Assembly: GCA_900553395.1 (NCBI GenBank)
Contig: USDJ01000006.1
Span: 13,863-77,862 of the forward strand
Reading direction: 5' to 3'
Length of the DNA: 64,000 nucleotides
Origin: an uncultured Mycoplasmatota bacterium
GTDB lineage: Bacteria > Bacillota_I > Bacilli_A > RF39 > UBA660
Shown: piece by piece, positions 5,718 through 62,776 of the stretch
Position numbering within the stretch: the stretch's first letter is position 1
Layout of the letters: the number at the start of each line of letters is the position of its first letter
Made by a program: the position numbers and the translations under genes
The notes under the pieces: model-generated
Told to the model about the DNA's origin: nothing
Database searches by the model: none
The model's input: only the letters and a program-made list of their open reading frames with translations

Positions 5718-6831
5718 AAAGTTCCTCTATTTCTTCTCTATATATTTTATCCATTATTTTTAATACATTCATTATTGAGTATTTATTAATTATATCACTA
5801 TTTTTACGTCCTAACTCTAAGGCATAGCTTTTATTATTTTTTAGGGTTCTTATAGCGCCAATTAGTCCTTCTTTATCCTTTATATCCACTACGAGGCCGT
5901 TTACTCCATTACAAATCAAATCCCTATTACCTCTACAATTTGTAACAATTATAGGCTTATTTTTATACATGGCTTCCATTATATTTAAAGGTAACCCCTC
6001 CTGTTTACTAACAGAAATAACTAAGTCACTAATATCTACATATTCATTTATATTATCTTTAAACCCAAGTAATTTAACACTATCTTCTAGTCCCTTTTTC
6101 TTTATAAATTTTCTTATTTTTTTATCTCTAGCATTGTTACCTATAAGAAGTAATTTTTCATTAGTAATATTCATTTCATAAAAAGCTTTTACCAAATACA
6201 TTTGACGTTTTCTATTTGATATTTCAGCCACATAAGATATTATATAATCACTATCTTTAAATCCTAACTCTCTTATAATCTTTTTTCTTTTTGAAGTAGA
6301 AATGCTTTTTGAAAACTTTTCTTCTTTAAAACCTATACCAGGAATATATTTTATTTTAGTCTTAAAATGCTTTTTAGCAAAATTATAATCCTCTTCATTC
6401 ATGGTAATTATAAGATCCGTATATTTTGACAAAATTTTCTCTATTGGGAAAAATAAAATCCAATTAATCCAAGGACATCCTTTAAAAAAATGAAATCCGT
6501 GAGCCGTATATATGACTTTAACATTATTTTTTTTTCTATAATGTAAAGCTGCTAATCTAGTAACTACTGCGGCACTTGGCGTATTTGTGTGAATTATATC
6601 ATATTTTTCTGTTTCTATTATTTTTTTTAATATAAAGATTGACTTTATATTATCTAACTTAAATGGGGTTCTCTTTATTGGAACTGAATAGCACTTAGAT
6701 GCATATTCAAGTTCTTTATTAGATGAAGTGGCTGTATGAACTATAAATCCGTTATCATTAAACCATTTTAAGTATGGTATATGACACAGATATAAATGTA
6801 TATATGTATTAGAAGTATAAAGTACTTTCAT
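5701..6831 (-). CDS. Glycosyltransferase family 4 (GT-B, Glycos_transf_1)
   Basis: C-terminal EGLPLNIMEAMYKNKPIIVTNCRGNRDLICNGVNG matches the E..G....EAM..G.P....G motif. RBS GGAGTGA precedes the ATG at 6831. Confidence 0.8.
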   Translation of the reverse strand: MKVLYTSNTYIHLYLCHIPYLKWFNDNGFIVHTATSSNKELEYASKCYSVPIKRTPFKLDNIKSIFILKKIIETEKYDIIHTNTPSAAVVTRLAALHYRKKNNVKVIYTAHGFHFFKGCPWINWILFFPIEKILSKYTDLIITMNEEDYNFAKKHFKTKIKYIPGIGFKEEKFSKSISTSKRKKIIRELGFKDSDYIISYVAEISNRKRQMYLVKAFYEMNITNEKLLLIGNNARDKKIRKFIKKKGLEDSVKLLGFKDNINEYVDISDLVISVSKQEGLPLNIMEAMYKNKPIIVTNCRGNRDLICNGVNGLVVDIKDKEGLIGAIRTLKNNKSYALELGRKNSDIINKYSIMNVLKIMDKIYREEIEELYERKD

Positions 6832-6990
6832 ATAATCACTCCATATTAATTATAACTTATACATATTTAAAAGACAAGATTAAATTAAAAAGTATTAAAA
6901 TACAAAAGTTATTTTTTATCAATTATTAAAGATTAATTTACTTATATTAATAATAACTAGTTGAAGACTACTTGCTTATATAAAAGAAAA

Positions 6991-7014
6991 AAAGATTGAG
7001 CTTTTTCAATCTTT
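6991..7014 (-). terminator. Intrinsic terminator after frr
   Basis: AAAGATTG(A)-loop-(T)CAATCTTT forms an 8-9 bp stem immediately after the frr stop, followed by TTTTTTTCTTTT on the minus strand. Confidence 0.7.
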
Positions 7015-7020
7015 TAAGAA

Positions 7021-7563
7021 CTAAACAGTCATTAATTCTTGTTCTTTTACTTTAAACTTTTCATCTACTATTTTGTTATATTTATTTATTAGCTCTTGAA
7101 TTTCTTCTTGAGCACGTTTTTTATCATCTTCTGGCATTTCTAATTTTTTAACGTCGTTATTAGCATCTTGTCTTATATTTCTTAATGCTATTTTGCAATC
7201 TTCTGAATATTCTTTAGCTTGTTTTACATAATTTCTTCTTGTTTCTTCTGTAAGAGCTGGAATATTCAAAATAATTACTTCCCCATTATTATTTGGAGTT
7301 ATTCCAATATTAGCTTCATAGATAGCTTTTTCTATTGTACTAATACTTGTTTTATCAAAAGGCTTAATCATAAGTTGTCTAGCTTCTGGTATTGATATTG
7401 TTGCTAACTGTTTAAGTGGAGTATCTGAACCATAGTAGTTTACCATAACACCATCTAACATACTAGGGTTAGCGCGTCCAGCACGAATGTTTAAAAGCCT
7501 TTTTTCCATATTTTCTATAGCATTTTCCATAGACATTTCTGTTTCCATTAAGATTTCTTCCAT
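7021..7563 (-). CDS. frr: Ribosome recycling factor
   Basis: LLNIRAGRANPSMLDGVMVNYYGSDTPLKQLATISIPEARQLMIKPFD is characteristic of RRF. RBS AGGAGGAA is upstream. Confidence 0.95.
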   Translation of the reverse strand: MEEILMETEMSMENAIENMEKRLLNIRAGRANPSMLDGVMVNYYGSDTPLKQLATISIPEARQLMIKPFDKTSISTIEKAIYEANIGITPNNNGEVIILNIPALTEETRRNYVKQAKEYSEDCKIALRNIRQDANNDVKKLEMPEDDKKRAQEEIQELINKYNKIVDEKFKVKEQELMTV

Positions 7564-7571
7564 AATTCCTC

Positions 7572-9251
7572 CTATTTAATATTTTCTATTTCTTCTATAG
7601 CACTATCAATATTTATTTCTTTAATTTCTTCACTACTTCTTAGTTTTAATTCTACTATATCATCTGATACTTTCTTACCAATAGTTATTCTTACTGGAAT
7701 ACCTATTAGATCCATATCATTAAACTTAACTCCAGGACGTACATCTCTATCATCTAAAATAGTATCTATTCCAAGATTATTTAGTCTATTATATAAGTCT
7801 TGAGCTATTCCTACTTGTTTTTCATCTTTAGTAGATATAATTATGATTGCCACTTTATAAGGCGCTATAGAATAAGGCCATATTATACCTTTATCATCGT
7901 GTGACTGTTCTACAACACTGGCCATCACTCTAGGTACACCCAATCCATAACATCCCATATAAGGATAATTTAACTTGTTATCTTTATCCAAATAACTTAT
8001 ATTTAAAGCTTCACAATATTTAGTACCTAATTTAAATAAGTTTCCTACTTCTATTCCTCTTTTGAAATATAATTCACCATTACATTTTGGACACTTATCA
8101 CCTTCTACTGGCTGCTTTATATCACCTACGATATCGTATTTAAAATCGCTTACATTTCCATTTATATAGTGATAATTTTCCTTATTAGCTCCAAAGCAGA
8201 AGTTTCTCATATGTAAAATCTCATCGTCAATTACTATTTTAGCTTTTAAATCTTTTGGGCCAGTAAAACCAGGTACTGCATTTGATTTTTCAATCAATGC
8301 ATCATCTGCAAAATTAAATTCTTCAACACCCATTAATCTGCACACCTTAGCTTCACTTAATTCTCTATCGCCTCTAATAAAGAATACGACAAATTCACCA
8401 TTAACATTCATAAGTAATGCTTTAACACTGTTTTTTTTGTCAATATTTAAAAATTCGCAAACATCATCTATAGATTTACAATTTGGTGTTTCTACTAATT
8501 CTAAACTCTTATATTCATCAGTACTGTCTTCAATAGCTACGCTTGCAACTTCAACGTTTGTAGCATAATTACAATTTGAACAAAGCGCTAATAGATCCTC
8601 ACCAGTATCTGTTATAGCTTGATATTCCTCTGATAAAAAGCCACCCATAAGTCCTGTATCAGCTCTTACAATCTTATAATCTAAACCTATTCTGTCAAAT
8701 ATTTTATTATATGCAACATACATTTTTTTGTATGAATTATCAAGCCCTTCTAAATCTACATCAAAGCTATAAGCATCTTTCATGATAAACTCTCTAACTC
8801 TAATAAGCCCTAATCTAGGCCTTACTTCATCTCTATATTTATTACCTATTTGATATAAATTAAAAGGCATATCTTTATAGCTTTTTATCATAGAACCGGC
8901 TGCCATAGCAAATAATTCTTCGTGTGTTGGTCCAAGTGCTAAAGGACGATTATATCTATCCTTTAATTTAAACATACTACTGCCGAAATTATTAAGTCTT
9001 CCACTAGCTTCAAATACTTCTTGAGGAAGTAATTGTGGCATTCTAAGTTCTTGAGCACCAGCATTATTCATTTCTTCCCTAACAATATTTTCTATATTTT
9101 GTAAAACCTTTAATCCAAGTGGCATATATGTATAAATACCATTTCCGACTTTTTTTATCATACCTGATTTTACTAACAAATTGCCACTAATAGACTCTTC
9201 ATCACGTACATTTTCTCTTAATGTATAAAAAAATGAATTACTAAGTCTCAT
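7572..9251 (-). CDS. proS: Proline--tRNA ligase (bacterial type with insertion/editing domain)
   Basis: Length 559 aa. Class II aaRS motifs YQIGNKYRDEVRPRLGLIRVREFIMKDAYSF and GCYGLGVPRVMA are present. Confidence 0.93.
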   Translation of the reverse strand: MRLSNSFFYTLRENVRDEESISGNLLVKSGMIKKVGNGIYTYMPLGLKVLQNIENIVREEMNNAGAQELRMPQLLPQEVFEASGRLNNFGSSMFKLKDRYNRPLALGPTHEELFAMAAGSMIKSYKDMPFNLYQIGNKYRDEVRPRLGLIRVREFIMKDAYSFDVDLEGLDNSYKKMYVAYNKIFDRIGLDYKIVRADTGLMGGFLSEEYQAITDTGEDLLALCSNCNYATNVEVASVAIEDSTDEYKSLELVETPNCKSIDDVCEFLNIDKKNSVKALLMNVNGEFVVFFIRGDRELSEAKVCRLMGVEEFNFADDALIEKSNAVPGFTGPKDLKAKIVIDDEILHMRNFCFGANKENYHYINGNVSDFKYDIVGDIKQPVEGDKCPKCNGELYFKRGIEVGNLFKLGTKYCEALNISYLDKDNKLNYPYMGCYGLGVPRVMASVVEQSHDDKGIIWPYSIAPYKVAIIIISTKDEKQVGIAQDLYNRLNNLGIDTILDDRDVRPGVKFNDMDLIGIPVRITIGKKVSDDIVELKLRSSEEIKEINIDSAIEEIENIK

Positions 9252-9300
9252 TTTATCAACTCCTATCTCATTATAACAAAATATATAATAAAATAAAAGA

Positions 9301-11064
9301 TTAATTATCGTATTCTTTCAAAAAATTAAATAAGTTAATAGCTACTTCACCAGGTAAAACTTCCTTTAATTCACTAATACTTGCTTCTTTCATTTTATTA
9401 ATAGTTTTATATTTTTTTATAAGTTCTACTTTTCTCTTTTCGCCTATACCACTAATATTATCCAAAATACTAGAAAGGCTTCCCTTACTTCTTATTTGCC
9501 TGTGATAATTAATGGTAAATTCGTGTACCTCATCCTGCATTCTTTCTAGTAAATAAAATAGATTACTTTTTTTATCTATATTTATTTCTTTAATTGGGTC
9601 AAAAGCTAAAAGAGCGCTAGTTGTATGCTTTGAATCTTTCTTTAAACCAACTACAGGTATATTAAGACATAAACTATTTATAACGTCACGTGCTACATTT
9701 ATCTGACCAATTCCACCATCTACTATAATTAAATCTGGCATTTCTAATTTATCTTTTAAAACTCTAAAGTATCTTCTATAAATTACTTCTCTCATTGTAT
9801 TATAATCGTCGTTAGTATCTACACTTATTTTAAATTTTCTATAGTTGTTTTTACTTGGTTTGCCATCTATAAAGCAAACCATTCCAGATACATTATAAGT
9901 TCCAAAAAGATGAGCATTATCAAATATTTCTATTCTAGATAGCGTTGGAATATTTAAAACTTTTCCAAGCTCTTGATTAGCCAAAATAGTCTTTTCTTCA
10001 TCTTTATGTATTAGTTCAAATTTTTCATTTAAAACTATTTTGGCATTTTCACATGCCATATTTACTAGTTTTAGTTTTTCACCTTTTTTAGGGCATCTCA
10101 CAGAAACGTCTAAATACTTAGCAAGAAGTTCACTATCTACAATATTTGGCACAAGTATTTCTCGTGGTTTATTTAAATTATTATAAAATCTAGCAATAAA
10201 TCTTATAAGTTCTTCATTAATATCATCTACTATATCAAAAATTTTACTTTTTCTCTCTACAATTTTCGAACCTCTAATAAAAAAGACTTGAATGGATAAA
10301 TAACCTTTATCAAAGTAATAGCCAAATATATCTCTATCTACATTATCTTTTAACTCGACTTCTTGACGAGTCAATGTTATGTTTATATAATCAAGTAAGT
10401 CTTTATATTCTTTGGCTTTTTCAAAATGTAATAAATCACTTTCCTGTTGCATCTTTTCAACTAGCTTTTTGGTAACAATAGAATGATCACCATTTAAAAA
10501 TTTAGTTATTTCTTTCAACATTTCATCTATTTTATCTTGATCCACCTTGTTAGAACAATATCCTAAGCATTCACCTATATGATAATATAGACAAGGCCTT
10601 TTTTCATATGTGCTACATTTTCTAAGTGGATAAATCCTGTTTAGTAAATTAACAACACTACGTGCAGCAGTTACATTGGGATATGGTCCAAATAAGTGAT
10701 TAGCTTTTTTCTTTCTATTTATATTTCTTATAACTTTTAAAGTAGGCACTTTATCACTTGTAAGCTCTATATATGGATAACTTTTATCATCACGCAAAAG
10801 TATATTATATTTCGGATCGTATTTTTTTATTAAATTAATTTCTAAAATAAGTGATTCTATTTCACTGTTTACTACTATATATTCAAAATCAGCAATCTCA
10901 CTAACAAGTCTAGCCGTTTTACCATAATGTTTCCCTCTAAAATAAGAATTAACCCTGTTTTTTAATTTTTTGGCTTTTCCAACATAAATAATTACACCAT
11001 CTTTATTTTTCATAAGATAGCATCCAGGAAGTTGTGGTAAAAGTAATAGTTTTTCGTGCAACAT
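9301..11064 (-). CDS. uvrC: Excinuclease ABC subunit C
   Basis: GIY-YIG N-terminus (PGCYLMKNKDGVIIYVGKAKKLKNRVNSYF), a UVR domain and a C-terminal helix-hairpin-helix (ISGIGEKRKVELIKKY). The likely start is ATG at 11064 (MLHEK) after GGGTGA. The track start is a TTG 12 nt upstream. Confidence 0.93.
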   Translation of the reverse strand: MLHEKLLLLPQLPGCYLMKNKDGVIIYVGKAKKLKNRVNSYFRGKHYGKTARLVSEIADFEYIVVNSEIESLILEINLIKKYDPKYNILLRDDKSYPYIELTSDKVPTLKVIRNINRKKKANHLFGPYPNVTAARSVVNLLNRIYPLRKCSTYEKRPCLYYHIGECLGYCSNKVDQDKIDEMLKEITKFLNGDHSIVTKKLVEKMQQESDLLHFEKAKEYKDLLDYINITLTRQEVELKDNVDRDIFGYYFDKGYLSIQVFFIRGSKIVERKSKIFDIVDDINEELIRFIARFYNNLNKPREILVPNIVDSELLAKYLDVSVRCPKKGEKLKLVNMACENAKIVLNEKFELIHKDEEKTILANQELGKVLNIPTLSRIEIFDNAHLFGTYNVSGMVCFIDGKPSKNNYRKFKISVDTNDDYNTMREVIYRRYFRVLKDKLEMPDLIIVDGGIGQINVARDVINSLCLNIPVVGLKKDSKHTTSALLAFDPIKEINIDKKSNLFYLLERMQDEVHEFTINYHRQIRSKGSLSSILDNISGIGEKRKVELIKKYKTINKMKEASISELKEVLPGEVAINLFNFLKEYDN

Positions 11065-11805: not shown

Positions 11806-12429
11806 TTATTCGTTATATAATATCTTCTTAAGTATTAAATTAACCTGAGAAAACTCTACATTAGAAGCTGTTGCTCCTCCAAGTATTATAGTATTAACGC
11901 TTAATTTAGTGTTCTCTTCAAATCTAAGTAATGTTGTTTGATAAAACTGAGCATACTTGCCATTACTTTGGGGAAAACTAAATGACAAAGCTTTTATTTC
12001 TGAACCATTTTCATCCTGCAAATAAAAGTGCCCACCATGCGCATTATCAGCACCACTTATTAATCCAGATAAAGTTATTTCATAAATACCAGGCTTAACT
12101 AACACTTCATTTTCATTGACAACTTCGAAATAATTAGAAGGATTAGGAATTAGCCAAGGTGATGCAATAGTAAGTTCTCCTTCATTTTTAGTATCATCAT
12201 AACTTGTATAAAAAATGCTCTCAATGCTTGCAGGAAAACTTGGCCCTGTTGGACCAATGCTACCAGTATCTCCCTTATCTCCTTTGTCTCCTTTTTCACC
12301 AGCTATACCAGCAATGCCTTGAGGCCCTGTTGGACCCACTAGACCTATCTGACATCCAAAACCTAAATTTAATAACTTATTTCGTAGTTTCATATCTTCC
12401 TCTATTTTTAAATATTTTTTTTCATTCAT
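11806..12429 (-). CDS. Collagen-like triple-helix repeat protein with BclA-like C-terminal globular domain (probable spore-surface/exosporium protein)
   Basis: 12 uninterrupted GXY triplets (GLVGPTGPQGIAGIAGEKGDKGDKGDTGSIGPTGPS) are followed by ~140 aa of beta-rich sequence. Start ATG at 12429 (MNEKKY) follows AGGAGGC (12440-12434). Confidence 0.75.
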   Translation of the reverse strand: MNEKKYLKIEEDMKLRNKLLNLGFGCQIGLVGPTGPQGIAGIAGEKGDKGDKGDTGSIGPTGPSFPASIESIFYTSYDDTKNEGELTIASPWLIPNPSNYFEVVNENEVLVKPGIYEITLSGLISGADNAHGGHFYLQDENGSEIKALSFSFPQSNGKYAQFYQTTLLRFEENTKLSVNTIILGGATASNVEFSQVNLILKKILYNE

Positions 12430-12494
12430 AATAGCCTCCTGTTTTAATATATGATATATTAATTTTTTAGTATAAGCCAAACATAAATAAAAAA

Positions 12495-17071: not shown

Positions 17072-17995
17072 TTATTCTACCGTTATAACTCTTTTTGATG
17101 ATACCTGATTTCCAGAAGGATCTTTAGCTATATATGTAATAATATATTTATCCTTTACTCCAAAATTTATTTTACCCTCTATGCTTATAGAACAATCACC
17201 ACTATTATCAGTACAACTTACGCCTTCCATTAAGTCATATTCATTAACACTTGAAGATATAGTTGTATTTTCTGGTATTACAAGATTTGGTGCCTCTAAA
17301 TCTTTTATAATTACACTAAAAACTACTACAGTAGAATATCCATAGTCATCTACAACAGTATAATTTACATAATAAATTCCAAGCTTAGTTGTGTCAATTG
17401 TATCAACTATTATATCATTTTTGGTAATATTGAAAACCACTCTGCTTGCCAAATTAGCTCCATCTTTAGAAGTCGCATTATAGCTTGGCATAGAAAAGTC
17501 ACTGCCAAGATTTACACTAACAGTATAATTTCCGGCACTATCCTTATTTAATCCTTCCAGTACAATACTAGGTTTTTGTTCTTTATAAAGAGAAGAAGTC
17601 CTATCATCTCTTTTTATAGTAAATAAATAATCTCCACTTTTTTTAGAATACTTACTCTTACTATATCTATTACTTCCAATATTTTTAATCTCTATAACTA
17701 AGTCATCACTAAAATATTCGCCAGTTTTTGGATCTTTTATATCAGAATCTAGTAAAGATTTCTTTTTTAATTCTCCTACTGTTATATATTTAACATTATC
17801 TCTTTCAGGTAAAAATTCAGCATTTTCTAGCGACCAATTATAAGCTGAGGTTAAAATATCATTTATTTTTTTTTGATATACAGTATCTTTACTACTATCA
17901 GTTACATTTATAATAGCAGGAAGTGTTATAGAGAAAATTACCATCAAAATAACTATAACTCCTAATAATTCTACTAATGTGAATCCTTTTTTCAT
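17072..17995 (-). CDS. Type IV pilin-like protein with two C-terminal Ig-like (DUF5011-type) domains
   Basis: N-terminus MKKGFTLVELLGVIVILMVIFS followed by a GspG/ComGC-like head. The C-terminal half has two repeats of the pattern G.Y.V.Y...D..G......V.V.D...P (GIYYVNYTVVDDYGYSTVVVFSVIIKDLEAP and KYIITYIAKDPSGNQVSSKRVITV). Confidence 0.75.
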   Translation of the reverse strand: MKKGFTLVELLGVIVILMVIFSITLPAIINVTDSSKDTVYQKKINDILTSAYNWSLENAEFLPERDNVKYITVGELKKKSLLDSDIKDPKTGEYFSDDLVIEIKNIGSNRYSKSKYSKKSGDYLFTIKRDDRTSSLYKEQKPSIVLEGLNKDSAGNYTVSVNLGSDFSMPSYNATSKDGANLASRVVFNITKNDIIVDTIDTTKLGIYYVNYTVVDDYGYSTVVVFSVIIKDLEAPNLVIPENTTISSSVNEYDLMEGVSCTDNSGDCSISIEGKINFGVKDKYIITYIAKDPSGNQVSSKRVITVE

Positions 17996-17998
17996 ACA

Positions 17999-18529
17999 TT
18001 ACTCCTTTATAAAAATGCTTAATATTTTAGAGGCAAAAAGAAGTATTTCATTTCCCTTGCTCATAGCAATACCTTTTTCCAATGCCTTACCACCAATTGT
18101 AAGAGTTGATATAATTCCCATTACTATAAGTGTCACTAAAAGCCCATTATAATTAGTGGCAGCAGTTATTTTAAGTGATATAACCGCTCCTGTTGATCCA
18201 GATATAATTCCACATATATCACCTATTACATCGTTACAAAAAGATGATACTTTTTCAGCATTTTTTTTAAGTTTTACTGCAACTCTAGCAGATTTTATTT
18301 TTTTTGATGCCATAGAATGAAATACAGCCTCATCTGCCGTAGAACAAGCAACACCTATCATGTCAAATATAACTCCAATAAGAATAAACACAATAGTTAA
18401 AATTATACCTACTGGTATATTTACATTTGGTATAGCAGTTTCAGATATAAAAGTAAATAATATAGATATAATAAAAGTTAAAATAACAATCATCATAATC
18501 CATTTATAATTAGTTTTAGCATTCTTCAT
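17999..18529 (-). CDS. Polytopic membrane protein, function unknown
   Basis: Three or four hydrophobic helices. The ORF abuts the downstream pilin gene. I cannot securely assign a family. Confidence 0.5.
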   Translation of the reverse strand: MKNAKTNYKWIMMIVILTFIISILFTFISETAIPNVNIPVGIILTIVFILIGVIFDMIGVACSTADEAVFHSMASKKIKSARVAVKLKKNAEKVSSFCNDVIGDICGIISGSTGAVISLKITAATNYNGLLVTLIVMGIISTLTIGGKALEKGIAMSKGNEILLFASKILSIFIKE

Positions 18530-18530
18530 A

Positions 18531-18755
18531 CTATTTTAATTCTTCTCTTTCAATATTTGTGTTATAATTAGACTCTTGTGAATTATTTTCTATAATTCTT
18601 TCTTTTTTATCTTTTAATCCTATTACAAAAAGTATAAATAAAATAATAACTAACACATATAAAGATAAAATTATAATTAAATCTTTATGACTTTTTTTAC
18701 TCTTATCATTCTTATTGCTTGAATCAAGCTCTACTGCTTTTGGATCATTATCCAT
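18531..18755 (-). CDS. Small single-pass membrane protein
   Basis: 74 aa with one TM helix (LIIILSLYVLVIILFILFVIGL). Its stop codon (18531-18533) sits one nucleotide upstream of the start codon (18529-18527) of the next gene. Confidence 0.4.
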   Translation of the reverse strand: MDNDPKAVELDSSNKNDKSKKSHKDLIIILSLYVLVIILFILFVIGLKDKKERIIENNSQESNYNTNIEREELK

Positions 18756-18821
18756 ATCATCACCCTAAGTTTAGTATAGCATAAAAGAAATAATTTAACA
18801 AGAAAAAATAAAGATTGCTCT

Positions 18822-20078
18822 TTATTTCAAATATGATATAAACTCATCCATTGTAGTACTAGAAAATATAGTCATTCTTCTCACTTTATATTTATCTGTA
18901 CTTTTAGGATATGAATATCCATAAGTATTATATTGACCTATAAAAGCAAGTTTAAATCCTGCTTTTTTCAAAAGAGAAATAGCCCTATCATTAAAATCAA
19001 AGAATGGATAAGCGAAATACTTGCTTCCACCTAGCTTTTCTTGACTAATGCGTAAGTCTTCTAAAACTTTATCTTCATCAAGACATAGTATTCCTCCACC
19101 TTGATTGCCATACCCTTTACACTCATATTGATTATGCATATTATTGGTATGTGATTCTAAATCTAAATATTCAGATTTAAACTCATCATAAGTATCTTTT
19201 ATTCCTGTAATCACAAATAATGTTGCATTTACTTTATACTGCTCCAATAACTTAATAGCATCTAGATCAAATATAGTTCCATCATCTATAGTTAAAACTA
19301 TGCTTTTTTCTGGAATATTAATTTTACCATCTAAATACATTTCAAGTTCATTAAGTTTAAGTGTAAAATAATTATTTTCCCTAATATATTTTAAATGACT
19401 CTCAAACTGATCTAAAGTTTGGCATATAGCTTGATCACAATTATAAGTATCTGGGTTATATAAGAAATGATAAGTTAAAGTCCTTATTTTATCCTTATTC
19501 TTTAGTTCTGTGTTTATATTATCATAAATAGACTCTATATCTTCACTATTTATATATACTAGGGCATTATTATATTCAATGCCATATCTATTATCATCTT
19601 TAACTATTATAGGAAAGTCAAATGATGAATTAATAGTATATAATAAATTACCTTCATAATCATAAAAACTAGTAACATCTTTTGTTTTAATATTCTGATT
19701 AAAATATATATAATTTTTATATCTATCATCTATACTAAATGCATCTATCTTTTCTACATCGCGATAATATACATATATATCTAAATTTTCTATTTTAAAA
19801 TAAGTTGTTGTGGAAGTTAGTTCAATATCGTCTAGTATAAGATTAATATTTTCACTAATTTTTCCATATTCCTTATAATTATCATCGGTTTTATAATAAA
19901 GTTTAGCTTCTCTACTCGTTTTTACATATTTATTGTAATGACTTTTTACCTCACTTAAATTATCAATGCTATTGTCAGTTTTTTCTTTAGCATTATTCTT
20001 ATTAAAATTAATTAAAAAGGTAAACCCAAGTATAATTAAGGCTACTAATAAAATTCCAAAAATAGTATATTTTTTCAT
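18822..20078 (-). CDS. Membrane-anchored polysaccharide deacetylase (NodB homology domain)
   Basis: N-terminal TM helix. The catalytic-domain pattern is YHFL...F..HL.YI.ENNY..L, then SIVLTIDDGT, then LESHTNNMH. Confidence 0.75.
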   Translation of the reverse strand: MKKYTIFGILLVALIILGFTFLINFNKNNAKEKTDNSIDNLSEVKSHYNKYVKTSREAKLYYKTDDNYKEYGKISENINLILDDIELTSTTTYFKIENLDIYVYYRDVEKIDAFSIDDRYKNYIYFNQNIKTKDVTSFYDYEGNLLYTINSSFDFPIIVKDDNRYGIEYNNALVYINSEDIESIYDNINTELKNKDKIRTLTYHFLYNPDTYNCDQAICQTLDQFESHLKYIRENNYFTLKLNELEMYLDGKINIPEKSIVLTIDDGTIFDLDAIKLLEQYKVNATLFVITGIKDTYDEFKSEYLDLESHTNNMHNQYECKGYGNQGGGILCLDEDKVLEDLRISQEKLGGSKYFAYPFFDFNDRAISLLKKAGFKLAFIGQYNTYGYSYPKSTDKYKVRRMTIFSSTTMDEFISYLK

Positions 20079-20091
20079 ATTATCACCAATC

Positions 20092-21597
20092 TTAGTATGC
20101 GTTATTTATGAAGTATTTTTCATAAAAAGCTGATTTTTTCATAAGTTCATTATTAAAAGCATCATAGCCAAGTTCTTCTGCCAGAGTTTCACTTGATGAA
20201 AATAAGTCTGTTCCAAGACCTAAATGGTCATTTTCTATAGAAACGCCAAGAGCTGACAACGTTGTTGGAAACATATCTAATGTTGTAAATACTCTGTTTT
20301 TAGAATTAACCGGAACTTTATCTGTATTTATAAATGCATTATAAACACTTCTATTATAGCCACTATCTATAGAATCAAAAAATGTCTCCTGCATAGTAAA
20401 ATGATCTCCAGTTATTATTATAACTGTATCTTTATAAAAATCTTGTTCCTTAATCCAATTTATAAATTCATAAATCATACTATCCGAACATGAAAATGAA
20501 TTAGAATAATTGTCCTTAAATTTTTTCTCACAAGAAGAATCCAAATAGCCATCTGGAAAATGTGTATCGGCCGTTAACAAAGTAAAATTAAATGGTTCAT
20601 CACTTTTAGATATTTCTAGCAATTTATCTTTAGCAAAGGCAAACAATTTTTTATCTTCATAACCCCACCATACTTTATAATTTTTACTTATTAATTTATT
20701 TTTTCTAGCATATTCATAATCATAAATCTCATATTTCCCATGGTAACTAAAATAATCATCGCGGCATCCAAATGCAGCATCTGAGCCAATCATAAAATAA
20801 TTTTTATAACCGTTATCAAGTAAAATATCACCTAATGTATATAATCCTTTAATAGAATTATCATAACTTAAATCAGTATTTACATCAATAGACACTTTTA
20901 GTGGCACACCAGAAGTCTGCGCTATAAGCGCACCTGCTGTGTAAGTTGCGCCACTTACTTCATATCCACCACCTAAATTTTCTCTATTACTAAAATTAAG
21001 ATTATTTAGCGCTATAGACTCTAAATTAGGTATTATAGACTCTTCTAATGCTCCTCCATTTGCTTTTGAAGCAAAAGTAGATTCAAGTGACTCTACATAA
21101 ATATATATTAAATTTTTCTTCTTTTCTGGAAACGTTATGTTAACATTTCTAGGATCTATATAAAGTTCATCATATATCTTAGAATATTGATTTTGATACT
21201 TAATAAATTCATCAATTTTAAGTATTTTAACTGGAAGAAGTATACTAAATATTATATATAGAGTAAAAATTATCTTTCCTATATAATCTATAGCATCTAA
21301 TTGTGACTTCTTATCTTTTATAGTAATATTAACAAATACCTTACCTTTAAATTTTTGTGATATTTTTAATATTACTAGATAAATAGATATTGCTATAACA
21401 CCTGATATAACAACAAATAATAATCCTTTAGAAATTGAAGAAAAGCTTGTCCCTTTACTAGTCATCAAACTATAAACTATTTGCTCAAAAGGAACAGATT
21501 TAAAAGTATACTTTATATATAAAGATATAAGTACAACAAGAAGTAAAATTAATTCAAATATATATTTAATTACTTTTTTTGTGTTTTGGTTTTTCAT
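20092..21597 (-). CDS. LTA-synthase/sulfatase-family phospho(glycerol/ethanolamine) transferase
   Basis: Three N-terminal TM helices precede an extracytoplasmic sulfatase-like domain (LIYIYVESLES, GATYTAGALIAQTSG, LLTADTHFP, IIITGDH). Confidence 0.75.
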   Translation of the reverse strand: MKNQNTKKVIKYIFELILLLVVLISLYIKYTFKSVPFEQIVYSLMTSKGTSFSSISKGLLFVVISGVIAISIYLVILKISQKFKGKVFVNITIKDKKSQLDAIDYIGKIIFTLYIIFSILLPVKILKIDEFIKYQNQYSKIYDELYIDPRNVNITFPEKKKNLIYIYVESLESTFASKANGGALEESIIPNLESIALNNLNFSNRENLGGGYEVSGATYTAGALIAQTSGVPLKVSIDVNTDLSYDNSIKGLYTLGDILLDNGYKNYFMIGSDAAFGCRDDYFSYHGKYEIYDYEYARKNKLISKNYKVWWGYEDKKLFAFAKDKLLEISKSDEPFNFTLLTADTHFPDGYLDSSCEKKFKDNYSNSFSCSDSMIYEFINWIKEQDFYKDTVIIITGDHFTMQETFFDSIDSGYNRSVYNAFINTDKVPVNSKNRVFTTLDMFPTTLSALGVSIENDHLGLGTDLFSSSETLAEELGYDAFNNELMKKSAFYEKYFINNAY

Positions 21598-21907
21598 CTT
21601 TTACCTCTACATCTACTTGTAAATATTTTTCTACTATAATAAATAATACTGGTAATATGCAATTTACAAAAATAGAAAGCAATTCATATTTAAAAGAAAA
21701 TATATAGTGATCATTTATATATGTTAATATATTACCATCAAAACCATTAAGCAAAATAATTGGTAGCATAATCAAAAAGTTAGAAAATAAAACCAATAGT
21801 AAGAAATACATAATAAGATCACGTGTATTAACATTATTTTTTATTCTTTGTATTATTTTTATTCCTAATACACTAGGTAAAACTAAAATTAAAATTCCAT
21901 AAAACAT
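21566..21907 (-). CDS. Small polytopic membrane protein (3 TM helices), unknown function
   Basis: 113-aa ORF overlapping the next gene by 32 nt. It lies immediately downstream of the candidate ncRNA terminator. Confidence 0.5.
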   Translation of the reverse strand: MFYGILILVLPSVLGIKIIQRIKNNVNTRDLIMYFLLLVLFSNFLIMLPIILLNGFDGNILTYINDHYIFSFKYELLSIFVNCILPVLFIIVEKYLQVDVEVKDEKPKHKKSN

Positions 21908-21950: not shown

Positions 21951-21975
21951 CAAACAAAAAAGGCATTTAAGCCTT
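21951..21975 (-). terminator. Intrinsic terminator of the candidate ncRNA
   Basis: The minus strand reads AAGGC-TTAAAT-GCCTT followed by TTTTTGTTTG. It lies 45 nt upstream of the next start codon. Confidence 0.6.
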
Positions 21976-22564
21976 AATTTAATCTATGGCATTAATATAG
22001 TTAACTTTACGTCTTAGGTCAAGTTGGATTTCCCTAAATATTACTTATCGTTACCAATAAGCGGTTCCCCATTAAAATATTTAGTATATTGTCACCAAAT
22101 ATACTACTTGATTGCCACTTAGTACGCACTACAATCCTATATTAACAACACTCTAGAAGATTTCCTCACCAAATTCTTGTTATTAATTCTTTTTTGCAAA
22201 TAGTATTTCAAATTGCACTTCAGTAGATTCTAGCTAAAAATTTACTAAACTGTTAACCAATTATCCCAACTATTCACTCAAGACAAGCTACACTACCCAT
22301 AACTTTCATCACAAAGTAGGTTTAATCCTATTTCGTATTCAGTCCGTCAGTAATTTCGTATAGGCAAAACACAACAATAGGTCTCCACGAATGGTGGGTC
22401 AGTTGCCATATGCCATTATGGTTGCCCAACATCCTCATTTCCAGCACTCACCCTACACTGGGCGTATAAAGCAAGCACAAGAAGTTTCACAGATATGCTC
22501 TTTAACGGATTTTTAGCCCCGTCTTCATAACAATTATTTGACTAGAATAATGTGCCATTGATGC
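21952..22564 (-). ncRNA. Candidate large (~610 nt) structured non-coding RNA, family unassigned
   Basis: No ORF of 60 aa or more in any frame. Its own promoter and terminator are listed as separate features. G+C rises to 29/60 in each of 22381-22440 and 22441-22500, against 11/60 in the coding line 22681-22740. Many helices can be drawn on the minus strand: 22083-22105 (8 bp), 22043-22062 (with a G.U pair), 22014-22037, 21979-21995, 22327-22364, 22302-22317, 22385-22397, and a long-range helix 22223-22235 with 22286-22296. Confidence 0.6.
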
Positions 22565-22569
22565 ACTAG

Positions 22570-22598
22570 ATTATAGCAAATTTACTTAATTTTGTCAA
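22570..22598 (-). promoter_or_regulatory. Near-consensus sigma-A promoter driving the candidate ncRNA
   Basis: The minus strand reads TTGACA (22598-22593), a 17-nt spacer ending in TGC (extended -10), then TATAAT (22575-22570). Confidence 0.65.
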
Positions 22599-22635
22599 AT
22601 TCACTATATAAATAGTATATTCTAAAGTTAAAATA

Positions 22636-31300: not shown

Positions 31301-33799
31301 CTAGTTCATTTTGTCTTTTTCTAATTTAAATATTATATTAGCTAATTTAGAATTGAATCTTTTTAAATAAATATTTTTTAAGGTAAACTTTTTAATATAT
31401 TTATTATTTTTATAATTTGGGAACTTCTCATTAACTTTATTAATTACGTATATAACACCTTTATCAAATTCTTCTTTATTTTTTGTTTTAGCTAATCTTT
31501 TAATAAAAGTGCCATATAAATATCTAACATAAGAATATTCTATTTCATCTAAATAGTTGGTATACTTTTTGTTGCTATTATATAACTCGGCAATACCATC
31601 AAGATTTTCAATTAATTGATATAACTTCTTATCATATACATAAGTAAGTGAACCCTCGTGTTGAATGTAATAATATAGTGTTTCATCTACTGAGCCAATT
31701 GACTTTGCTATTGGAAAAACCCTATATAGAAATTCAACATCTTCACAAAAATTTGATCCAACTTTAAATTTAATGTTTTTCAAAATAGTTTTTCGATATA
31801 TTTTGTTCCATATAACGTGATATGACGAAATTAATGCATTTCTTTTTACATATTCATAATTGTCTAAAGTAGCACTAATTCCACAGGAAACTGTTTTTTC
31901 TTTGCTTGGATATACCATCAAAGCATTACAAGCAACAATATCTAGATCATCATTCTTTGCTTTTTCATATAGTTTTCCGTACATAGTACTGTCCACATAA
32001 TCATCCGAATCAACAAATCCAATGTACTCTCCTGTTGCTAAAGATAATCCAACGTTTCGTGCGTTTGAAACTCCACCATTTGTTATATGTTTTACAATGA
32101 TATTTGAATATTTATTAGAATAATCATCTAAGATTTTTCCACTTCCGTCTTTAGAGCCATCGTCAATAGCAATTATTTGTAAACTGTCCATCTCTTGATT
32201 TACTAAACTATCTAGACATTTAGATATATACTTTTCAGAATTATAAACAGGAACAATTACACTAACCTTTATTTTTTTATTATTTTTACTTTCTTTTCCA
32301 TTATTTTTCATAACATATTTCTCCTTATCATGTCTTACAAAATGCAATAAATATCCACAGATAAAACCTAAAATAATTGTAACAACAAGTTCATCTAAAA
32401 CGTGTCCACTATAAAATGAAATTCCAATACAAACATAAATAGAAATACATAAAACAGCAATCTTAAATCTTAATCTTTTTCTATATAGCATATATATAGC
32501 TGCATATGTAGCAATTAATATATAAGGAAGAAGAAATAATATTACTCCAAATATTCCTATAGTATAATAATGAACCGTAAAATCACTTTCTATGTATATC
32601 TTTGCATTTCTATATCTGGAATATCCCATTCCAAAATACTTATCTAATGGATTGCTATTTAATTCATAGATTCTCTTAGTTATTAATTTTTCTAAATTTC
32701 TATTACCTCCCCTTTCACTATATGGTAAATCCATTGTATCTATCCAGAACTGGACATCATTTTCATATGGATATAATTCTAATATATATTCTGAAGGTAT
32801 TGAAAAATAATTAGCATAATTTTTAACAAAATTATTTTTGTCAGTATCTGATTCTAAATTTTTACGTTCAAGTAAAATATCTTCTCTTCCCTCGATATCA
32901 CTTTCTATTTTCTCATAATCGTTAAAATTTTTTCTTAATGTTAGGGGGGAGAAACTCATAACTATCACTAATATTAAAAGACTCGCAACATATATGGCTA
33001 TATTTTTTACTATAAACTTAAAATTTTCCTTTTTAAAAATAATGAAGAATAACCAAGAAATTAACATACAAAGCGCTACTAAAAGCCATCCATATGTTGA
33101 AACTCTTGTTCCTAACATAATCATTGAAATGGCAAGACAAACACTTGAAATATAGGATAATTTATCAGAAAATCTAATCGCATAATATATATTAATTGGT
33201 AATAGTAGCATAAGAACTGCACTAATTTGATTTGCCATATAGAAAAATCCTTTTGAAGCAAGATCTTCAAATTGATAACTATTATTTAAAAACCAATCAA
33301 ATATATTTCCTGATATAAATCCAGTTCCATATGATTTCAAAGAAATCTTAAATATGTTTGTAATAATAATTTCAAGTGAAAAAATAAGTGATACTATAAC
33401 AATACTCTTTTTAAAAGTATCTTCTTTTATATTTGATTTATAAGTTATATACGCAATTGTAAAAGGTAATATGAGCCTTAAGTAATAAAAGAACTCTGTA
33501 ACATATGAAAAAGTCATTGTTTCTAGAATAGCACTATCGAATTTTAAAGAATTGTATATATGAAAAGCCATATATACTAAAAGCAAAAACAAATATATTA
33601 ATATAAAAACTTTTTCTTTTTTTTCAAGCTTAACTTTCAAAATAATTAAGATTAACATAATAAAGCAAAAAGCAACTCTAATTATTGTTGAAGGTGAAAA
33701 CTTTAAGATTTTAGTTACTGATGGAGAAAAAAGCAAATAAAAATCTAAAAATGGTTGTAATATTATAAAAATTAATAATGCTCTGTCTATTTTTTTCAT
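31301..33799 (-). CDS. Fusion: O-antigen polymerase/ligase-like membrane domain plus C-terminal GT2 glycosyltransferase
   Basis: The N-terminal ~490 aa are polytopic. The C-terminal domain has VSVIVPVYNSEKYISKCLDSLVNQ, AIDDGSKDGS and VDSDDY. Confidence 0.75.
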   Translation of the reverse strand: MKKIDRALLIFIILQPFLDFYLLFSPSVTKILKFSPSTIIRVAFCFIMLILIILKVKLEKKEKVFILIYLFLLLVYMAFHIYNSLKFDSAILETMTFSYVTEFFYYLRLILPFTIAYITYKSNIKEDTFKKSIVIVSLIFSLEIIITNIFKISLKSYGTGFISGNIFDWFLNNSYQFEDLASKGFFYMANQISAVLMLLLPINIYYAIRFSDKLSYISSVCLAISMIMLGTRVSTYGWLLVALCMLISWLFFIIFKKENFKFIVKNIAIYVASLLILVIVMSFSPLTLRKNFNDYEKIESDIEGREDILLERKNLESDTDKNNFVKNYANYFSIPSEYILELYPYENDVQFWIDTMDLPYSERGGNRNLEKLITKRIYELNSNPLDKYFGMGYSRYRNAKIYIESDFTVHYYTIGIFGVILFLLPYILIATYAAIYMLYRKRLRFKIAVLCISIYVCIGISFYSGHVLDELVVTIILGFICGYLLHFVRHDKEKYVMKNNGKESKNNKKIKVSVIVPVYNSEKYISKCLDSLVNQEMDSLQIIAIDDGSKDGSGKILDDYSNKYSNIIVKHITNGGVSNARNVGLSLATGEYIGFVDSDDYVDSTMYGKLYEKAKNDDLDIVACNALMVYPSKEKTVSCGISATLDNYEYVKRNALISSYHVIWNKIYRKTILKNIKFKVGSNFCEDVEFLYRVFPIAKSIGSVDETLYYYIQHEGSLTYVYDKKLYQLIENLDGIAELYNSNKKYTNYLDEIEYSYVRYLYGTFIKRLAKTKNKEEFDKGVIYVINKVNEKFPNYKNNKYIKKFTLKNIYLKRFNSKLANIIFKLEKDKMN

Positions 33800-35942: not shown

Positions 35943-38570
35943 TTATTTCAAAATGTTTTTCATAATAAATTCATATAGACGCTTAGCAGAATTACCATCT
36001 AAATGCGTATGATATTTTTTTAATTCTTCTTCATATTTTTCTTTATTATAATTATTATTTTTTAGATTTTTCAAATATTTTAGAAAATCTTTTTCATTAT
36101 AAATATGTTCACCACTTATTATCTCATCATAATTTTCGCAACTAAGATATTTCTTATAGTAATCATAATCATCTAGTGTTACTCCGATCATATTTCTTTT
36201 AAGTAAATAATCAAAATATACTGATGAATAGTCAGTTATTAACGAATCAGTTCCACTTAAAAATTCATATAAATCTACTCCTAAATCCTGCAAATCAGCA
36301 TCTAGAATTATTCTAAAATTAGATAATTTTTCATTAGTCAAACTGCTTATATCTTGTGCTGGATGAGGTTTTAAATATATATATATATTATTTTTAATCA
36401 AATATTCATCTAATTCTTTTAGTTTCTCTAAATTATCATAGATAGGTATTAATGTATCACTTATATTTATTTCTTTTATATTCTTATGTTTTCTATAAGT
36501 TGGTAACCACAATACCAATTTACAATTTTGTTGCAAATTTAATTTTTTCTTTATGTCTATATTTTTAAACAATGAGTCATTCCTTGCAAATCCAAAATCT
36601 CTAAATTTATCTACAGAATTATTAAACTTTTCAGCCAAGAATTCAAAGAAATAATTTCCAGGAAGTATAAAATAATCTGCTACACCACATTGACTTAAAT
36701 ATTCATCTACCTTTTTATAGCCTATACCGTGCAACAAATGAATTCTCGTTTGATTAATATGCTTTTTGTGAACATATTTATTACAATCTATTATTAATTT
36801 AGCACTATAGTTATAGTAGATTGTCTTTATTTTTTCGAATGGAGTTTTTGGAAATAATTTTACAAATTTAACGTTTTTTATATTGTAATCCTTAAATTTT
36901 TTAGGATTATCAACAAACCATATAAGCTTGTATTTATCATTTAACTTTTTCTTTAGAAAGTAATTATAAACTGCTAAAGAATTATCAGACATATCAGGAT
37001 TACTTTCAAATATAATATAGTTTTTTACTAATAGTTTTGGATATTTTTGATAGATTATTTTTTTTATTGACTGTCTAAAGCTCTTTTTATCATCATGAGT
37101 AAAAAATAACAAATAGATAACAAATAAATAACCTAAGGAATATATTACACAAAAGGTAAATAATAATATCCAACTAGTTATATTTATTTTTGTAAAGTAC
37201 AAAATTGCTTTAAATATTATGGTGTATATAGAAGTTGCAAAAGTAATTCTTATAATATTCTTAAAATAAGTAATAACATCTATATTAACTTTTTTGTAAT
37301 AATATATATTTATTATTATAATATTTCCTAATAAAAGTGAAGCAGAACTACCTATAGCAGCACCAATTGCGCCAAATCTTTTTGATAAAGGTATTGTTAT
37401 AATAACATTTAAAAGCGCCACAAACAAATATACTACAGACCTAAATTTATGCTTATTTTTTGCTTGACATATTGAAATTGCTGTATTTTGTGTCAAGGGT
37501 ATAGTAGATGGAATTAAAATAATCAAGGCTATATAATACGCATTAACATAATCAGCTCCACCCCATAATGTAACAAATGCTTTACCAAACAAAATAAATC
37601 CAAATAAAACTAAAAACATTACAATCATTTGAATTTTCGAAATTTTGTTAAAAAAAGTAGAAACTTCATCATCAGAATTCTTCTTCTCAACCATTGAAAC
37701 AATTTTTGGTAAACATACACCACTAATTGCTGTTGACATCTGTTCATACATTGTTCTAATCTGAGTAAATAAACCATATACTGCAACAACTGCTGTGCCG
37801 CATACTGCACCCAAAATTATTTGATCTGTATTGTTATATATACTATCAACAATCATAGCTAAAAATATGAAAAATGAATATGTAAATATCTCTTTAAAAT
37901 ATTTAAAGCAACTTTTGCTTATCTTAAATCTCATATCTAGCTTAACTATACAGTAATAAGCATTAATTAAGTTAATTGCTAAATTAAAAGCACTCATTAA
38001 AATCACTACAACAATTGCATTTGCACCATTAAATAATGCATAAATTAAACTTATAGGATATAAAATTGCTTTAACAGTAAGTAAGCCTTTTTGAAAGGCA
38101 AACTTTTCTGACGAAATAATGTAACTGCCAAACACACTGAGTGGAAATGCTATAGCAACATTAACAACCAATATCAAGATTATTATCCTAGCCGAATTCA
38201 ACTCACTTGCAGTGAACTTTTGACCGAATAACAACCCAACATTTTTATATAACAATACACCAATCAAAAGAGAAACTACGCAAATAATTAAATAGGAAAT
38301 TAAAAACAAGCCATTTATTTCATTTTCTTCCTCTTTTTTTTCTAGTGACTTATATTTGGATGTGTATCTAATCATAGAATTACCAAACCCTAAATCCAAC
38401 ATAGATAAATAAGACATTATTGATAAAGCTATTGTATATAATCCATATTCACTTTTTCCCAAGCATTTAATTAAAAATGGAGTATATATAAATGTCATAA
38501 TGGTGTTTACAAATATATACACATATGACATAATAACTCCAAGTTTTCTTTGATTTTTCAACTTCATCAC
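35943..38570 (-). CDS. Fusion: Wzx-type (MOP superfamily) polysaccharide flippase plus C-terminal CDP-glycerol glycerophosphotransferase (TagB/TagF family)
   Basis: The N-terminal ~490 aa contain about 12-14 TM helices typical of polysaccharide biosynthesis flippases. The C-terminal ~380 aa carry LVLWLPTYRKH and LITDYSSVYFDYLL (Glyphos_transf motifs). Start is GTG at 38570 or ATG at 38567. Confidence 0.75.
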   Translation of the reverse strand: MMKLKNQRKLGVIMSYVYIFVNTIMTFIYTPFLIKCLGKSEYGLYTIALSIMSYLSMLDLGFGNSMIRYTSKYKSLEKKEEENEINGLFLISYLIICVVSLLIGVLLYKNVGLLFGQKFTASELNSARIIILILVVNVAIAFPLSVFGSYIISSEKFAFQKGLLTVKAILYPISLIYALFNGANAIVVVILMSAFNLAINLINAYYCIVKLDMRFKISKSCFKYFKEIFTYSFFIFLAMIVDSIYNNTDQIILGAVCGTAVVAVYGLFTQIRTMYEQMSTAISGVCLPKIVSMVEKKNSDDEVSTFFNKISKIQMIVMFLVLFGFILFGKAFVTLWGGADYVNAYYIALIILIPSTIPLTQNTAISICQAKNKHKFRSVVYLFVALLNVIITIPLSKRFGAIGAAIGSSASLLLGNIIIINIYYYKKVNIDVITYFKNIIRITFATSIYTIIFKAILYFTKINITSWILLFTFCVIYSLGYLFVIYLLFFTHDDKKSFRQSIKKIIYQKYPKLLVKNYIIFESNPDMSDNSLAVYNYFLKKKLNDKYKLIWFVDNPKKFKDYNIKNVKFVKLFPKTPFEKIKTIYYNYSAKLIIDCNKYVHKKHINQTRIHLLHGIGYKKVDEYLSQCGVADYFILPGNYFFEFLAEKFNNSVDKFRDFGFARNDSLFKNIDIKKKLNLQQNCKLVLWLPTYRKHKNIKEINISDTLIPIYDNLEKLKELDEYLIKNNIYIYLKPHPAQDISSLTNEKLSNFRIILDADLQDLGVDLYEFLSGTDSLITDYSSVYFDYLLKRNMIGVTLDDYDYYKKYLSCENYDEIISGEHIYNEKDFLKYLKNLKNNNYNKEKYEEELKKYHTHLDGNSAKRLYEFIMKNILK

Positions 38571-62041: not shown

Positions 62042-62776
62042 TTATTTCAATTTATCCTTGGCTAACTCTATTACTGGACGAACTCCAATTTCTAAATCTC
62101 CTATACCATTTGACTTCAATAAAGCAGATCTAACACTTATAGCATCTGGACTTAAGCCTTCATCGTAGAACCAAGATGATGCCGTTGCTGACCAATATCC
62201 ACCTGTATAGCCAGTATTAGTTATAGGTTTGTTAGGTATACCTAGATCATATTCTTCAACCACCGCTAGAACTCTATCATATAACCAACCTATTTTAGTC
62301 CTTAATTCAGTAGTTGAAAGAGAACCCTGGTTTAAAGTAACTATTTCAGTTTTACCTAATTTGGCAGAAATGTTAGCTATTTCTGCTACTTCTTCTGCTG
62401 TTATAAGTCTTGCATTATACCCTGTATAATCGATAGTATAATCAATTGCGTCACAATCTTGAGAAACACTTATATCACCATCAGAATTTAAATAGCAACT
62501 ATTTGCTGATCTTTTATATGTATAGCTTGTTGGTGTAAGCATACCTTTCCAAGCACTTGTATCATCTTTTAGTGCTTCTAAAGCTGTTATAGGTCCATTT
62601 TTATAATTTGCTACATCACTCCAACTTACTTTATCCAATGTATTATGATCCAAAATTAAAGTTACTCTATCATCAGTACTATTTATAACATAAAATTTTA
62701 AGCAACTATTTTGATACGTGTCTTTATTATCTATTCCATTATATCCTGATGCGCTATTTCCATAATCTGTTACCAT
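62042..62776 (-). CDS. Surface-domain ORF lacking its own signal peptide; probably the C-terminal part of the upstream pilin-like gene (shifted -1 at an A7 tract)
   Basis: The C-terminal pattern GGYWSATASS...AISVRSALL.....GVRPVIEL recalls extracellular domains common in gut Firmicutes (I recall DUF6273-type, not verified). There is no RBS and no hydrophobic N-terminus. Its ATG lies inside the A7 tract at the end of ORF 62770-63330. Confidence 0.6.
   Translation of the reverse strand: MVTDYGNSASGYNGIDNKDTYQNSCLKFYVINSTDDRVTLILDHNTLDKVSWSDVANYKNGPITALEALKDDTSAWKGMLTPTSYTYKRSANSCYLNSDGDISVSQDCDAIDYTIDYTGYNARLITAEEVAEIANISAKLGKTEIVTLNQGSLSTTELRTKIGWLYDRVLAVVEEYDLGIPNKPITNTGYTGGYWSATASSWFYDEGLSPDAISVRSALLKSNGIGDLEIGVRPVIELAKDKLK

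Follow-up and report, generated by a model that had tools for sequence, protein, structure and literature searches.

What is encoded by a long ORF-free stretch that lies among cell-envelope genes on the minus strand of the window, the whole 64-kb stretch of DNA analysed here? The interval is bounded by the stop codon of an MBOAT gene at 22636 and the next start codon at 21907, and no frame between 21908 and 22635 holds an ORF longer than 41 aa, in agreement with an initial annotation that had found none of 60 aa or more. That annotation proposed that the minus strand encodes a large, structured non-coding RNA that stands alone, either one of several poorly understood classes in a new context or a new class, and it compared the small membrane-protein gene that follows with oapA, the partner gene of OLE RNA. 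Two points are addressed here: the class to which the RNA belongs, and the downstream gene that encodes its OapA partner.

Identity of the RNA

The composition of the stretch differs sharply from that of its surroundings. The GC content is 0.35 to 0.42 across 22200-22599, against 0.18 to 0.24 in the flanks (200-nt windows), and the GC skew of the region is negative on the plus strand, so that the minus-strand RNA is G-rich; the jump in GC and the G-rich transcript described in the initial annotation are thereby borne out. The predicted 613-nt transcript folds with a minimum free energy of -153.5 kcal/mol (z = -2.6), and none of 20 dinucleotide shuffles folds as well.

A scan of the entire window against Rfam 15 at the gathering thresholds returns two matches in total, a tRNA at 530-602 and the following RNA:

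21970-22574, minus strand: OLE RNA, full-length type (cmscan match to RF01071 and covariation over 72 copies)

The RF01071 match scores 389.4 bits (E = 6.7e-111), where the gathering score is 50. It extends end to end, covering model positions 1-616 of 616 without truncation and exceeding the gathering score by 339 bits, and it is recovered also in an identical contig and in one relative. The end-to-end match makes the RNA a member of a described class rather than a new one. It also bears out the call of a stand-alone large structured RNA, and the cmscan comparison suggested in the initial annotation returns OLE, the candidate named first there. ROOL, GOLLD, HEARO and raiA RNAs are likewise large, structured and often stand-alone units; neither these models nor those of RNase P, tmRNA, SRP and group II introns match anywhere in the window at the Rfam gathering thresholds. 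On the evidence of the sequence it is very nearly certain that the region specifies an OLE RNA, of known class, with its own promoter and terminator and with oapA 3.4 kb downstream.

A single hairpin of the Rfam model is missing from this copy. The 12 nt at model positions 424-435 fall into a gap between 22148 and 22147; they are missing in all Bacilli-clade OLE sequences aligned and present in the copies from Clostridia/Oscillospiraceae (alignment A2 columns ~567-578). Larger stems are also missing in several relatives (L056, L068, L080, L042, L053 and L057), which resemble published reduced variants.

In this region the window sequence recurs unchanged in CABSFM010000004.1, a contig of the human-gut MAG GCA_902477035.1, and in contigs of gut metagenomes, Hadza samples among them. 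These identical contigs share the gene order and the OLE match, and six metagenome or MAG samples give the same nhmmer match (589.6 bits).

Conservation of the fold

The window OLE and 71 further copies were aligned with MAFFT, blind to structure, and the Rfam consensus structure was projected onto the alignment through the window sequence. The 3' pairing partners slid by 1-3 columns served as controls, together with 500 shuffles. In the window copy 144 of the 154 projected pairs are canonical. Across the 72 copies, standard pairs occupy 88.5% of cells, compared with 38-46% after sliding, and the covariation score is 0.521, compared with 0.10-0.135 in the slid controls; no shuffle (0/500) reaches any of the observed pairing measures. 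As one check of its RNA call the initial annotation had asked for compensatory changes in homologs, and 127 of the 154 pairs change on both sides. About one quarter of the positions are invariant over the 72 copies, those from Clostridia included, and all of them are kept in the window copy. The predicted OLE fold of the window copy is intact and evolutionarily maintained.

Of the nine helices drawn by hand in the initial annotation, those at 22083-22105 and 22043-22062 correspond to P13 and P14.1. The other seven lie off the fold supported by Rfam and by covariation, as judged by a crude concentricity test.

Predicted protein sites and dimer loops

The hairpin GUAUA-U-UUG-GUGA-CAA-UAUAC at 22104-22084 aligns to P13 of the model, with a GUGA loop and a one-nucleotide U bulge. 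OapB recognises a GNRA tetraloop closing P13 together with a single-nucleotide bulge (PMC7936274), and the predicted OapB site is retained in the window OLE. The GUAA loop of P14.1 is also present. A k-turn near P5 of OLE is bound by OapC/YbxF (PMC9723947); the joining sequences that flank this site in the window copy align to the RF01071 model. Genes for OapB and OapC were not found within the 64-kb window.

The reported dimer contacts of OLE involve the A-rich loop of P4, the complementary loops of P5.1 and P6.1, and the self-complementary loop of P9, for which a homodimeric kissing interaction has been seen by cryo-EM (PMC12265935). In the window copy P4 carries the A-rich loop CUAAAAA, the P5.1 loop ACGCCCAGU and the P6.1 loop UAAUGGCAUA are complementary kissing-loop sequences, and the P9 loop, UAGCUA, is self-complementary.

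~22235-22245 (alignment A2 columns ~452-466): P9 loop, with palindrome switching between clades

In 69 of the 72 copies the P9 loop reads as a palindrome, and the palindromes differ (UAGCUA in 18, UGGCCA in 14, UGUACA in 10, and others). This exchange of one palindrome for another lends comparative support to a homodimer kissing loop. A loop that pairs with itself has here evolved by compensatory change, in keeping with the homodimeric contact that has been reported.

Promoter and terminator

Two candidate expression signals bracket the RNA:

22570-22598, minus strand: ole promoter, sigma-70-type, with -35 TTGACA (22598-22593), a 17-nt spacer and an extended -10 TGcTATAAT (22578-22570)
21951-21975, minus strand: ole terminator-like hairpin of 5 bp with three G-C pairs and a 6-nt loop, followed by a U-tract

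The promoter matches the consensus at 12 of 12 positions, as no other site in the region does, and has the extended -10 TG in addition; the promoter and spacer given in the initial annotation are upheld. Transcription would start at about 22563-22567. In 55 of the 72 OLE copies a promoter with at least 10 of 12 matches occupies the same position, usually with the extended -10 TG, and the end of the -10 element mostly lies 11-13 nt before a conserved TGGC.

At the other end, the hairpin AAGGC-TTAAAT-GCCTT at 21975-21960 is followed by TTTTTGTTTG. Terminator-like sites number two, which are both strands of this one hairpin, against 0.3 expected in shuffles, and the terminator read by hand at 21975-21951 in the initial annotation therefore stands as a candidate. 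A terminator-like hairpin follows OLE in 13 of the 15 loci in which oapA lies at least 300 nt away, compared with 14 of the 57 in which oapA is adjacent. The conserved position of the promoter and this distribution of terminators suggest that ole is a self-contained transcription unit in the gut Bacilli lineage, with its own promoter and often its own terminator. Transcription may read through the short 5-bp terminator into the downstream genes.

Identification of oapA

It has been reported that ole and oapA almost never occur one without the other, and that OapA, a membrane protein of four helices, resembles CNNM and carries a distinctive DxxxD motif (PMC11332333). All ORFs of the window were screened for transmembrane segments and for DxxxD. 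Two small membrane-protein genes downstream of OLE have to be distinguished:

17999-18529, minus strand: oapA, 176 aa, with four predicted TM helices, DxxxD and a K/R-rich loop, CNNM-like
21566-21907, minus strand: 113-aa three-TM ORF, with a 32-nt overlap with the start of an LtaS/OpgB-like gene

The product of 17999-18529 has four TM segments and the sequence NDVIGD at residues 99-104, in which D100 and D104 form the DxxxD motif. Both residues are invariant and the K/R-rich loop is conserved in 25 aligned OapA homologs. A mutant of the Halalkalibacterium halodurans protein, PM1, may carry D100A/D104A; no confirmation of this turned up in the literature consulted, and it was not used as evidence. 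The match to PF01595 (CNNM) has an E-value of 9.7e-4, under the threshold, as is expected since OapA is only distantly related to CNNM. OapA homologs of ~180 aa number 5781 and carry PF01595 only, and within NCBIfam no model matches true OapA at E <= 0.001. TIGR04086, which we had assumed to be a dedicated NCBIfam model for OapA, was dropped as evidence.

The decisive test is the association with OLE. Among 80 loci encoding OapA relatives of 41-70% identity, taken from species-representative genomes that are mostly MAGs labelled "uncultured Bacilli bacterium", nhmmer places OLE upstream on the same strand in 74. By its TM segments, DxxxD motif, CNNM-like match and association with OLE, 17999-18529 is identified as oapA. 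In five loci with oapA homologs of 56-64% identity (L016, L020, L023, L033 and L048), neither nhmmer nor the Rfam model detects an OLE within 5-10 kb; either ole lies far off or on another contig, or oapA has been kept without it.

The 113-aa ORF at 21566-21907 was rejected as oapA. It has three TM segments and lacks DxxxD in the motif screen, it has no Pfam or NCBIfam match at E <= 0.1, CNNM included, and it co-occurs with the LtaS/OpgB-like gene. The sole homolog found, in locus L013 (43% identity), occupies the same place before a sulfatase-type gene; in that locus the homolog lies at 6345-6680 and the LtaS-like gene at 6652-8226. The 113-aa ORF may be a split-off membrane subunit of the LtaS/OpgB-like enzyme. 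The initial annotation was right that a small polytopic membrane-protein gene directly follows the RNA, and its parallel with oapA fails on the missing DxxxD and the lack of a family match.

Genes between ole and oapA

In the window oapA lies 3.4 kb from ole, and three cell-envelope genes come first. The spacer holds, besides the 113-aa ORF:

20092-21597, minus strand: 501-aa LtaS/OpgB-like phosphoglycerol-transferase-type enzyme with a sulfatase fold (PF00884, 3.4e-22)
18822-20078, minus strand: 418-aa polysaccharide deacetylase (PF01522, 7.5e-11)
18773-18801, minus strand: candidate promoter for the 74-aa ORF and oapA, TTGTTA, 17 nt, TGcTATACT (9 of 12 plus TG)
18531-18755, minus strand: 74-aa single-TM ORF directly upstream of oapA, a position conserved in the closest relatives

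The LtaS/OpgB-like enzyme also matches PRK03776/PRK12363 at ~1e-49, under the equivalog cut-off. Homologs of the deacetylase (59-66% identity) lie between OLE and oapA in L010, L011, L012 and L013, and in L007 a Polysacc_deac_1 (PF01522) gene is located upstream of OLE. Since promoter-like matches occur at chance frequency in this AT-rich stretch, the promoter at 18773-18801 is a tentative assignment.

The 74-aa ORF has no Pfam family above threshold. It shares 30-49% identity with the ORFs that occupy this position in L007, L009-L013 and L015, and in the closest relatives a small single-TM ORF is always directly upstream of oapA, whatever precedes it. Two roles are conceivable for it, that of an OapA partner particular to the lineage and that of no more than a conserved leader ORF. 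Its counterparts are:

L007, 9718-9996
L009, 9704-9961
L010, 8319-8549
L011, 9826-10011
L012, 1697-2071
L013, 9613-9957
L015, 9575-9955

Over 76 loci the gap between the 3' end of OLE and the start of oapA is 200 nt or less in ~58, and in 13 it is at least 596 nt, up to 5816 nt, with genes between the two. The gene orders in the closest relatives are:

L007, L009 and L015: OLE, small TM ORF, oapA, pilin-like gene
L010 and L012: OLE, deacetylase, small ORF, oapA
L013 and the window: OLE, 113-aa ORF, LtaS-like gene, deacetylase, small ORF, oapA
L011: OLE, AMP-binding enzyme, hybrid histidine kinase, deacetylase, small ORF, oapA

The layout of the window is thus shared with L013, whose OapA is only 61% identical. 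The inserts in other loci comprise a GT2 glycosyltransferase, an acyltransferase-3, an EamA transporter, a solute-binding protein and a restriction endonuclease. In L036 a gene for an R.Pab1-type restriction endonuclease occupies 9192-9950 between ole and oapA, which indicates that the spacer takes up mobile or defence genes besides envelope genes. The notion that the inserts are always envelope genes is rejected, given the AMP-binding enzyme with the hybrid kinase, the EamA transporter, the solute-binding protein and the restriction endonuclease: the inserts are heterogeneous, and envelope genes are frequent among them and not exclusive.

In this gut lineage the ole-oapA module lies at the edge of a large envelope-glycopolymer cluster, and envelope enzymes (polysaccharide deacetylase, LtaS/OpgB-like transferase, GT2 and acyltransferase-3) have come to lie between ole and oapA repeatedly. 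One reading of the inserted envelope genes and the small ORF is a functional coupling of the OLE particle to the synthesis or modification of envelope polymers, with the small ORF as a lineage-specific extra subunit. The heterogeneity of the inserts lowers its probability, and we regard it as rather unlikely; the genes may instead have been inserted neutrally at a permissive site.

Genomic surroundings

OLE lies inside the downstream end of a large cluster:

~18800-40400, minus strand: co-oriented envelope-glycopolymer cluster

The cluster includes a TagF-like glycerophosphotransferase fused to a flippase (35943-38570) and an O-antigen-ligase/GT2 fusion (31301-33799). It further contains a GT4, two DUF6056 proteins, a PgfS-like GT2, GtrA, an Alg14/Alg13-like PssD/PssE pair, a PIG-L deacetylase, a DHHW/AlgX-like protein and the MBOAT protein, which is DltB-like, under the equivalog cut-off. 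The initial annotation had regarded a cell-wall glycopolymer cluster as a new context for such an RNA. This claim is weak, as cell-wall biosynthesis genes are already reported among the recurrent neighbours of ole (PMC12265935) and relatives are similarly laid out.

Elsewhere in the window, type-IV-pilin-like ORFs with N-terminal methylation motifs are found on the minus strand at 17072-17995, 121-468 and 62770-63330. The first of these directly follows oapA, in a position conserved in L007 and L009-L013, and carries a bacterial Ig-like domain. Next to parC/parE lies an ORF of 224 aa (11806-12480, minus strand) that includes a short collagen-like Gly-X-Y repeat and occupies the same place in other samples of the species.

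Alternative explanations

Could the RNA represent a new large structured class whose resemblance to OLE is superficial? Its context differs from the classic ispA-ole-oapA-dxs operon, the gene directly downstream is not oapA, and one hairpin of the model is missing. Against these differences stand the match along the whole of RF01071, far over the gathering score, the invariant quarter of positions shared with Clostridia, the covariation that supports the same fold and the presence of oapA nearby, which together leave this explanation practically no probability. The option of a new class raised in the initial annotation is excluded by the Rfam match, the shared invariant positions and the covariation. 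A second possibility is that this OLE gene, parted from oapA, has fallen out of use and is decaying into a non-functional relic. The 3.4 kb between ole and oapA would agree with it, and rare defective ole genes are mentioned in the literature from organisms without OapA. This account is exceedingly improbable because 144 of the 154 base pairs are canonical, the invariant nucleotides, the protein sites and the dimer loops are all kept, oapA is intact with an invariant DxxxD, and the consensus promoter is conserved; the identical match in six samples and the recurrence of the layout in L013, with an OapA so divergent, also speak against it.

The stretch might instead be a degraded protein gene, or it might serve the envelope genes downstream as a long 5' leader or riboswitch, rather than being a free-standing RNA. 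It is co-oriented with a long series of envelope genes, and from its weak terminator read-through could reach the 113-aa, LtaS-like and deacetylase genes. The decayed gene is rejected on the shortness of the ORFs, none above 41 aa, and on substitutions that fit RNA base pairing and not codons. A leader or riboswitch is unlikely because the genes that follow this RNA in relatives are quite different ones, or oapA itself, and OLE RNA is known to be stable and abundant (PMC12265935). Taken together, an origin as a protein gene or a leader is very unlikely. The preferred reading remains that of a free-standing OLE RNA, maintained with its oapA at a distance.

Comparison with known OLE systems

The window locus and the OLE-OapA ribonucleoprotein of H. 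halodurans and Clostridium have the same ~600-nt length, conserved nucleotides and secondary structure of the RNA, and the window keeps the predicted OapB site, the dimerisation loops and a downstream, same-strand oapA with four TM helices and DxxxD. The differences lie mainly in the layout. In H. halodurans ole is placed inside a polycistronic isoprenoid/DNA-repair operon (PMC12265935), whereas the window ole has a strong predicted promoter and a terminator of its own. The classic order is ispA-ole-oapA-dxs, while here oapA is 3.4 kb off behind three envelope genes and is preceded by the 74-aa single-TM ORF. The window OLE also lacks the hairpin at model positions 424-435, and its host is a gut commensal, known from a MAG of 27% GC.

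The reduced OLE forms 'variant 1' (TANB77) and 'variant 2' (RF39) come from similar hosts, uncultured gut bacteria represented by MAGs (Fernando and Breaker 2024, PMC11332333). Unlike them, the window OLE is of the full-length type, with model positions 1-616 covered and the P13 OapB site kept; truncated copies do occur among the aligned relatives, for example in L056, L068, L080, L042 and L053. The window copy is an ordinary full-length OLE, and its sole unusual feature is the position of oapA 3.4 kb downstream behind three cell-envelope genes. The RNA class is already known, and the uncoupled layout of ole and oapA is a minor variant.

Proposed mechanism and significance

In the proposed mechanism, ole would be transcribed on the minus strand from its near-consensus extended -10 promoter, with transcription ending at the short intrinsic terminator. 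Like other members of its class, the RNA would dimerise by way of its P4, P5.1/P6.1 and P9 loops and then bind dimers of the four-helix OapA encoded at 17999-18529. The product would be a membrane-localised ribonucleoprotein, possibly spanning the membrane, that aids stress adaptation; dimerisation, OapA binding, membrane localisation and the role in stress are taken over from work on the family (PMC12265935, PMC11332333, PMC7936274, PMC9723947). In the gut lineage ole and oapA are apparently separate transcription units. We propose that the spacer tolerates inserted genes because ole terminates by itself and oapA has its own promoter.

According to current proposals OLE spans the membrane as an RNA dimer and acts as a master stress regulator. 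The stresses linked to OLE in H. halodurans are alcohol, cold, Mg2+ and poor carbon sources. The window copy brings no new class or mechanism to this picture. In conclusion, the analysis corrects the assignment of oapA in the window, adds comparative support for the P9 homodimer kissing loop, and suggests that ole in gut Bacilli is typically self-contained and can, in a minority of genomes, be parted from oapA by distances of up to 5.8 kb or more; annotation by ole-oapA adjacency would mis-assign oapA in such genomes.
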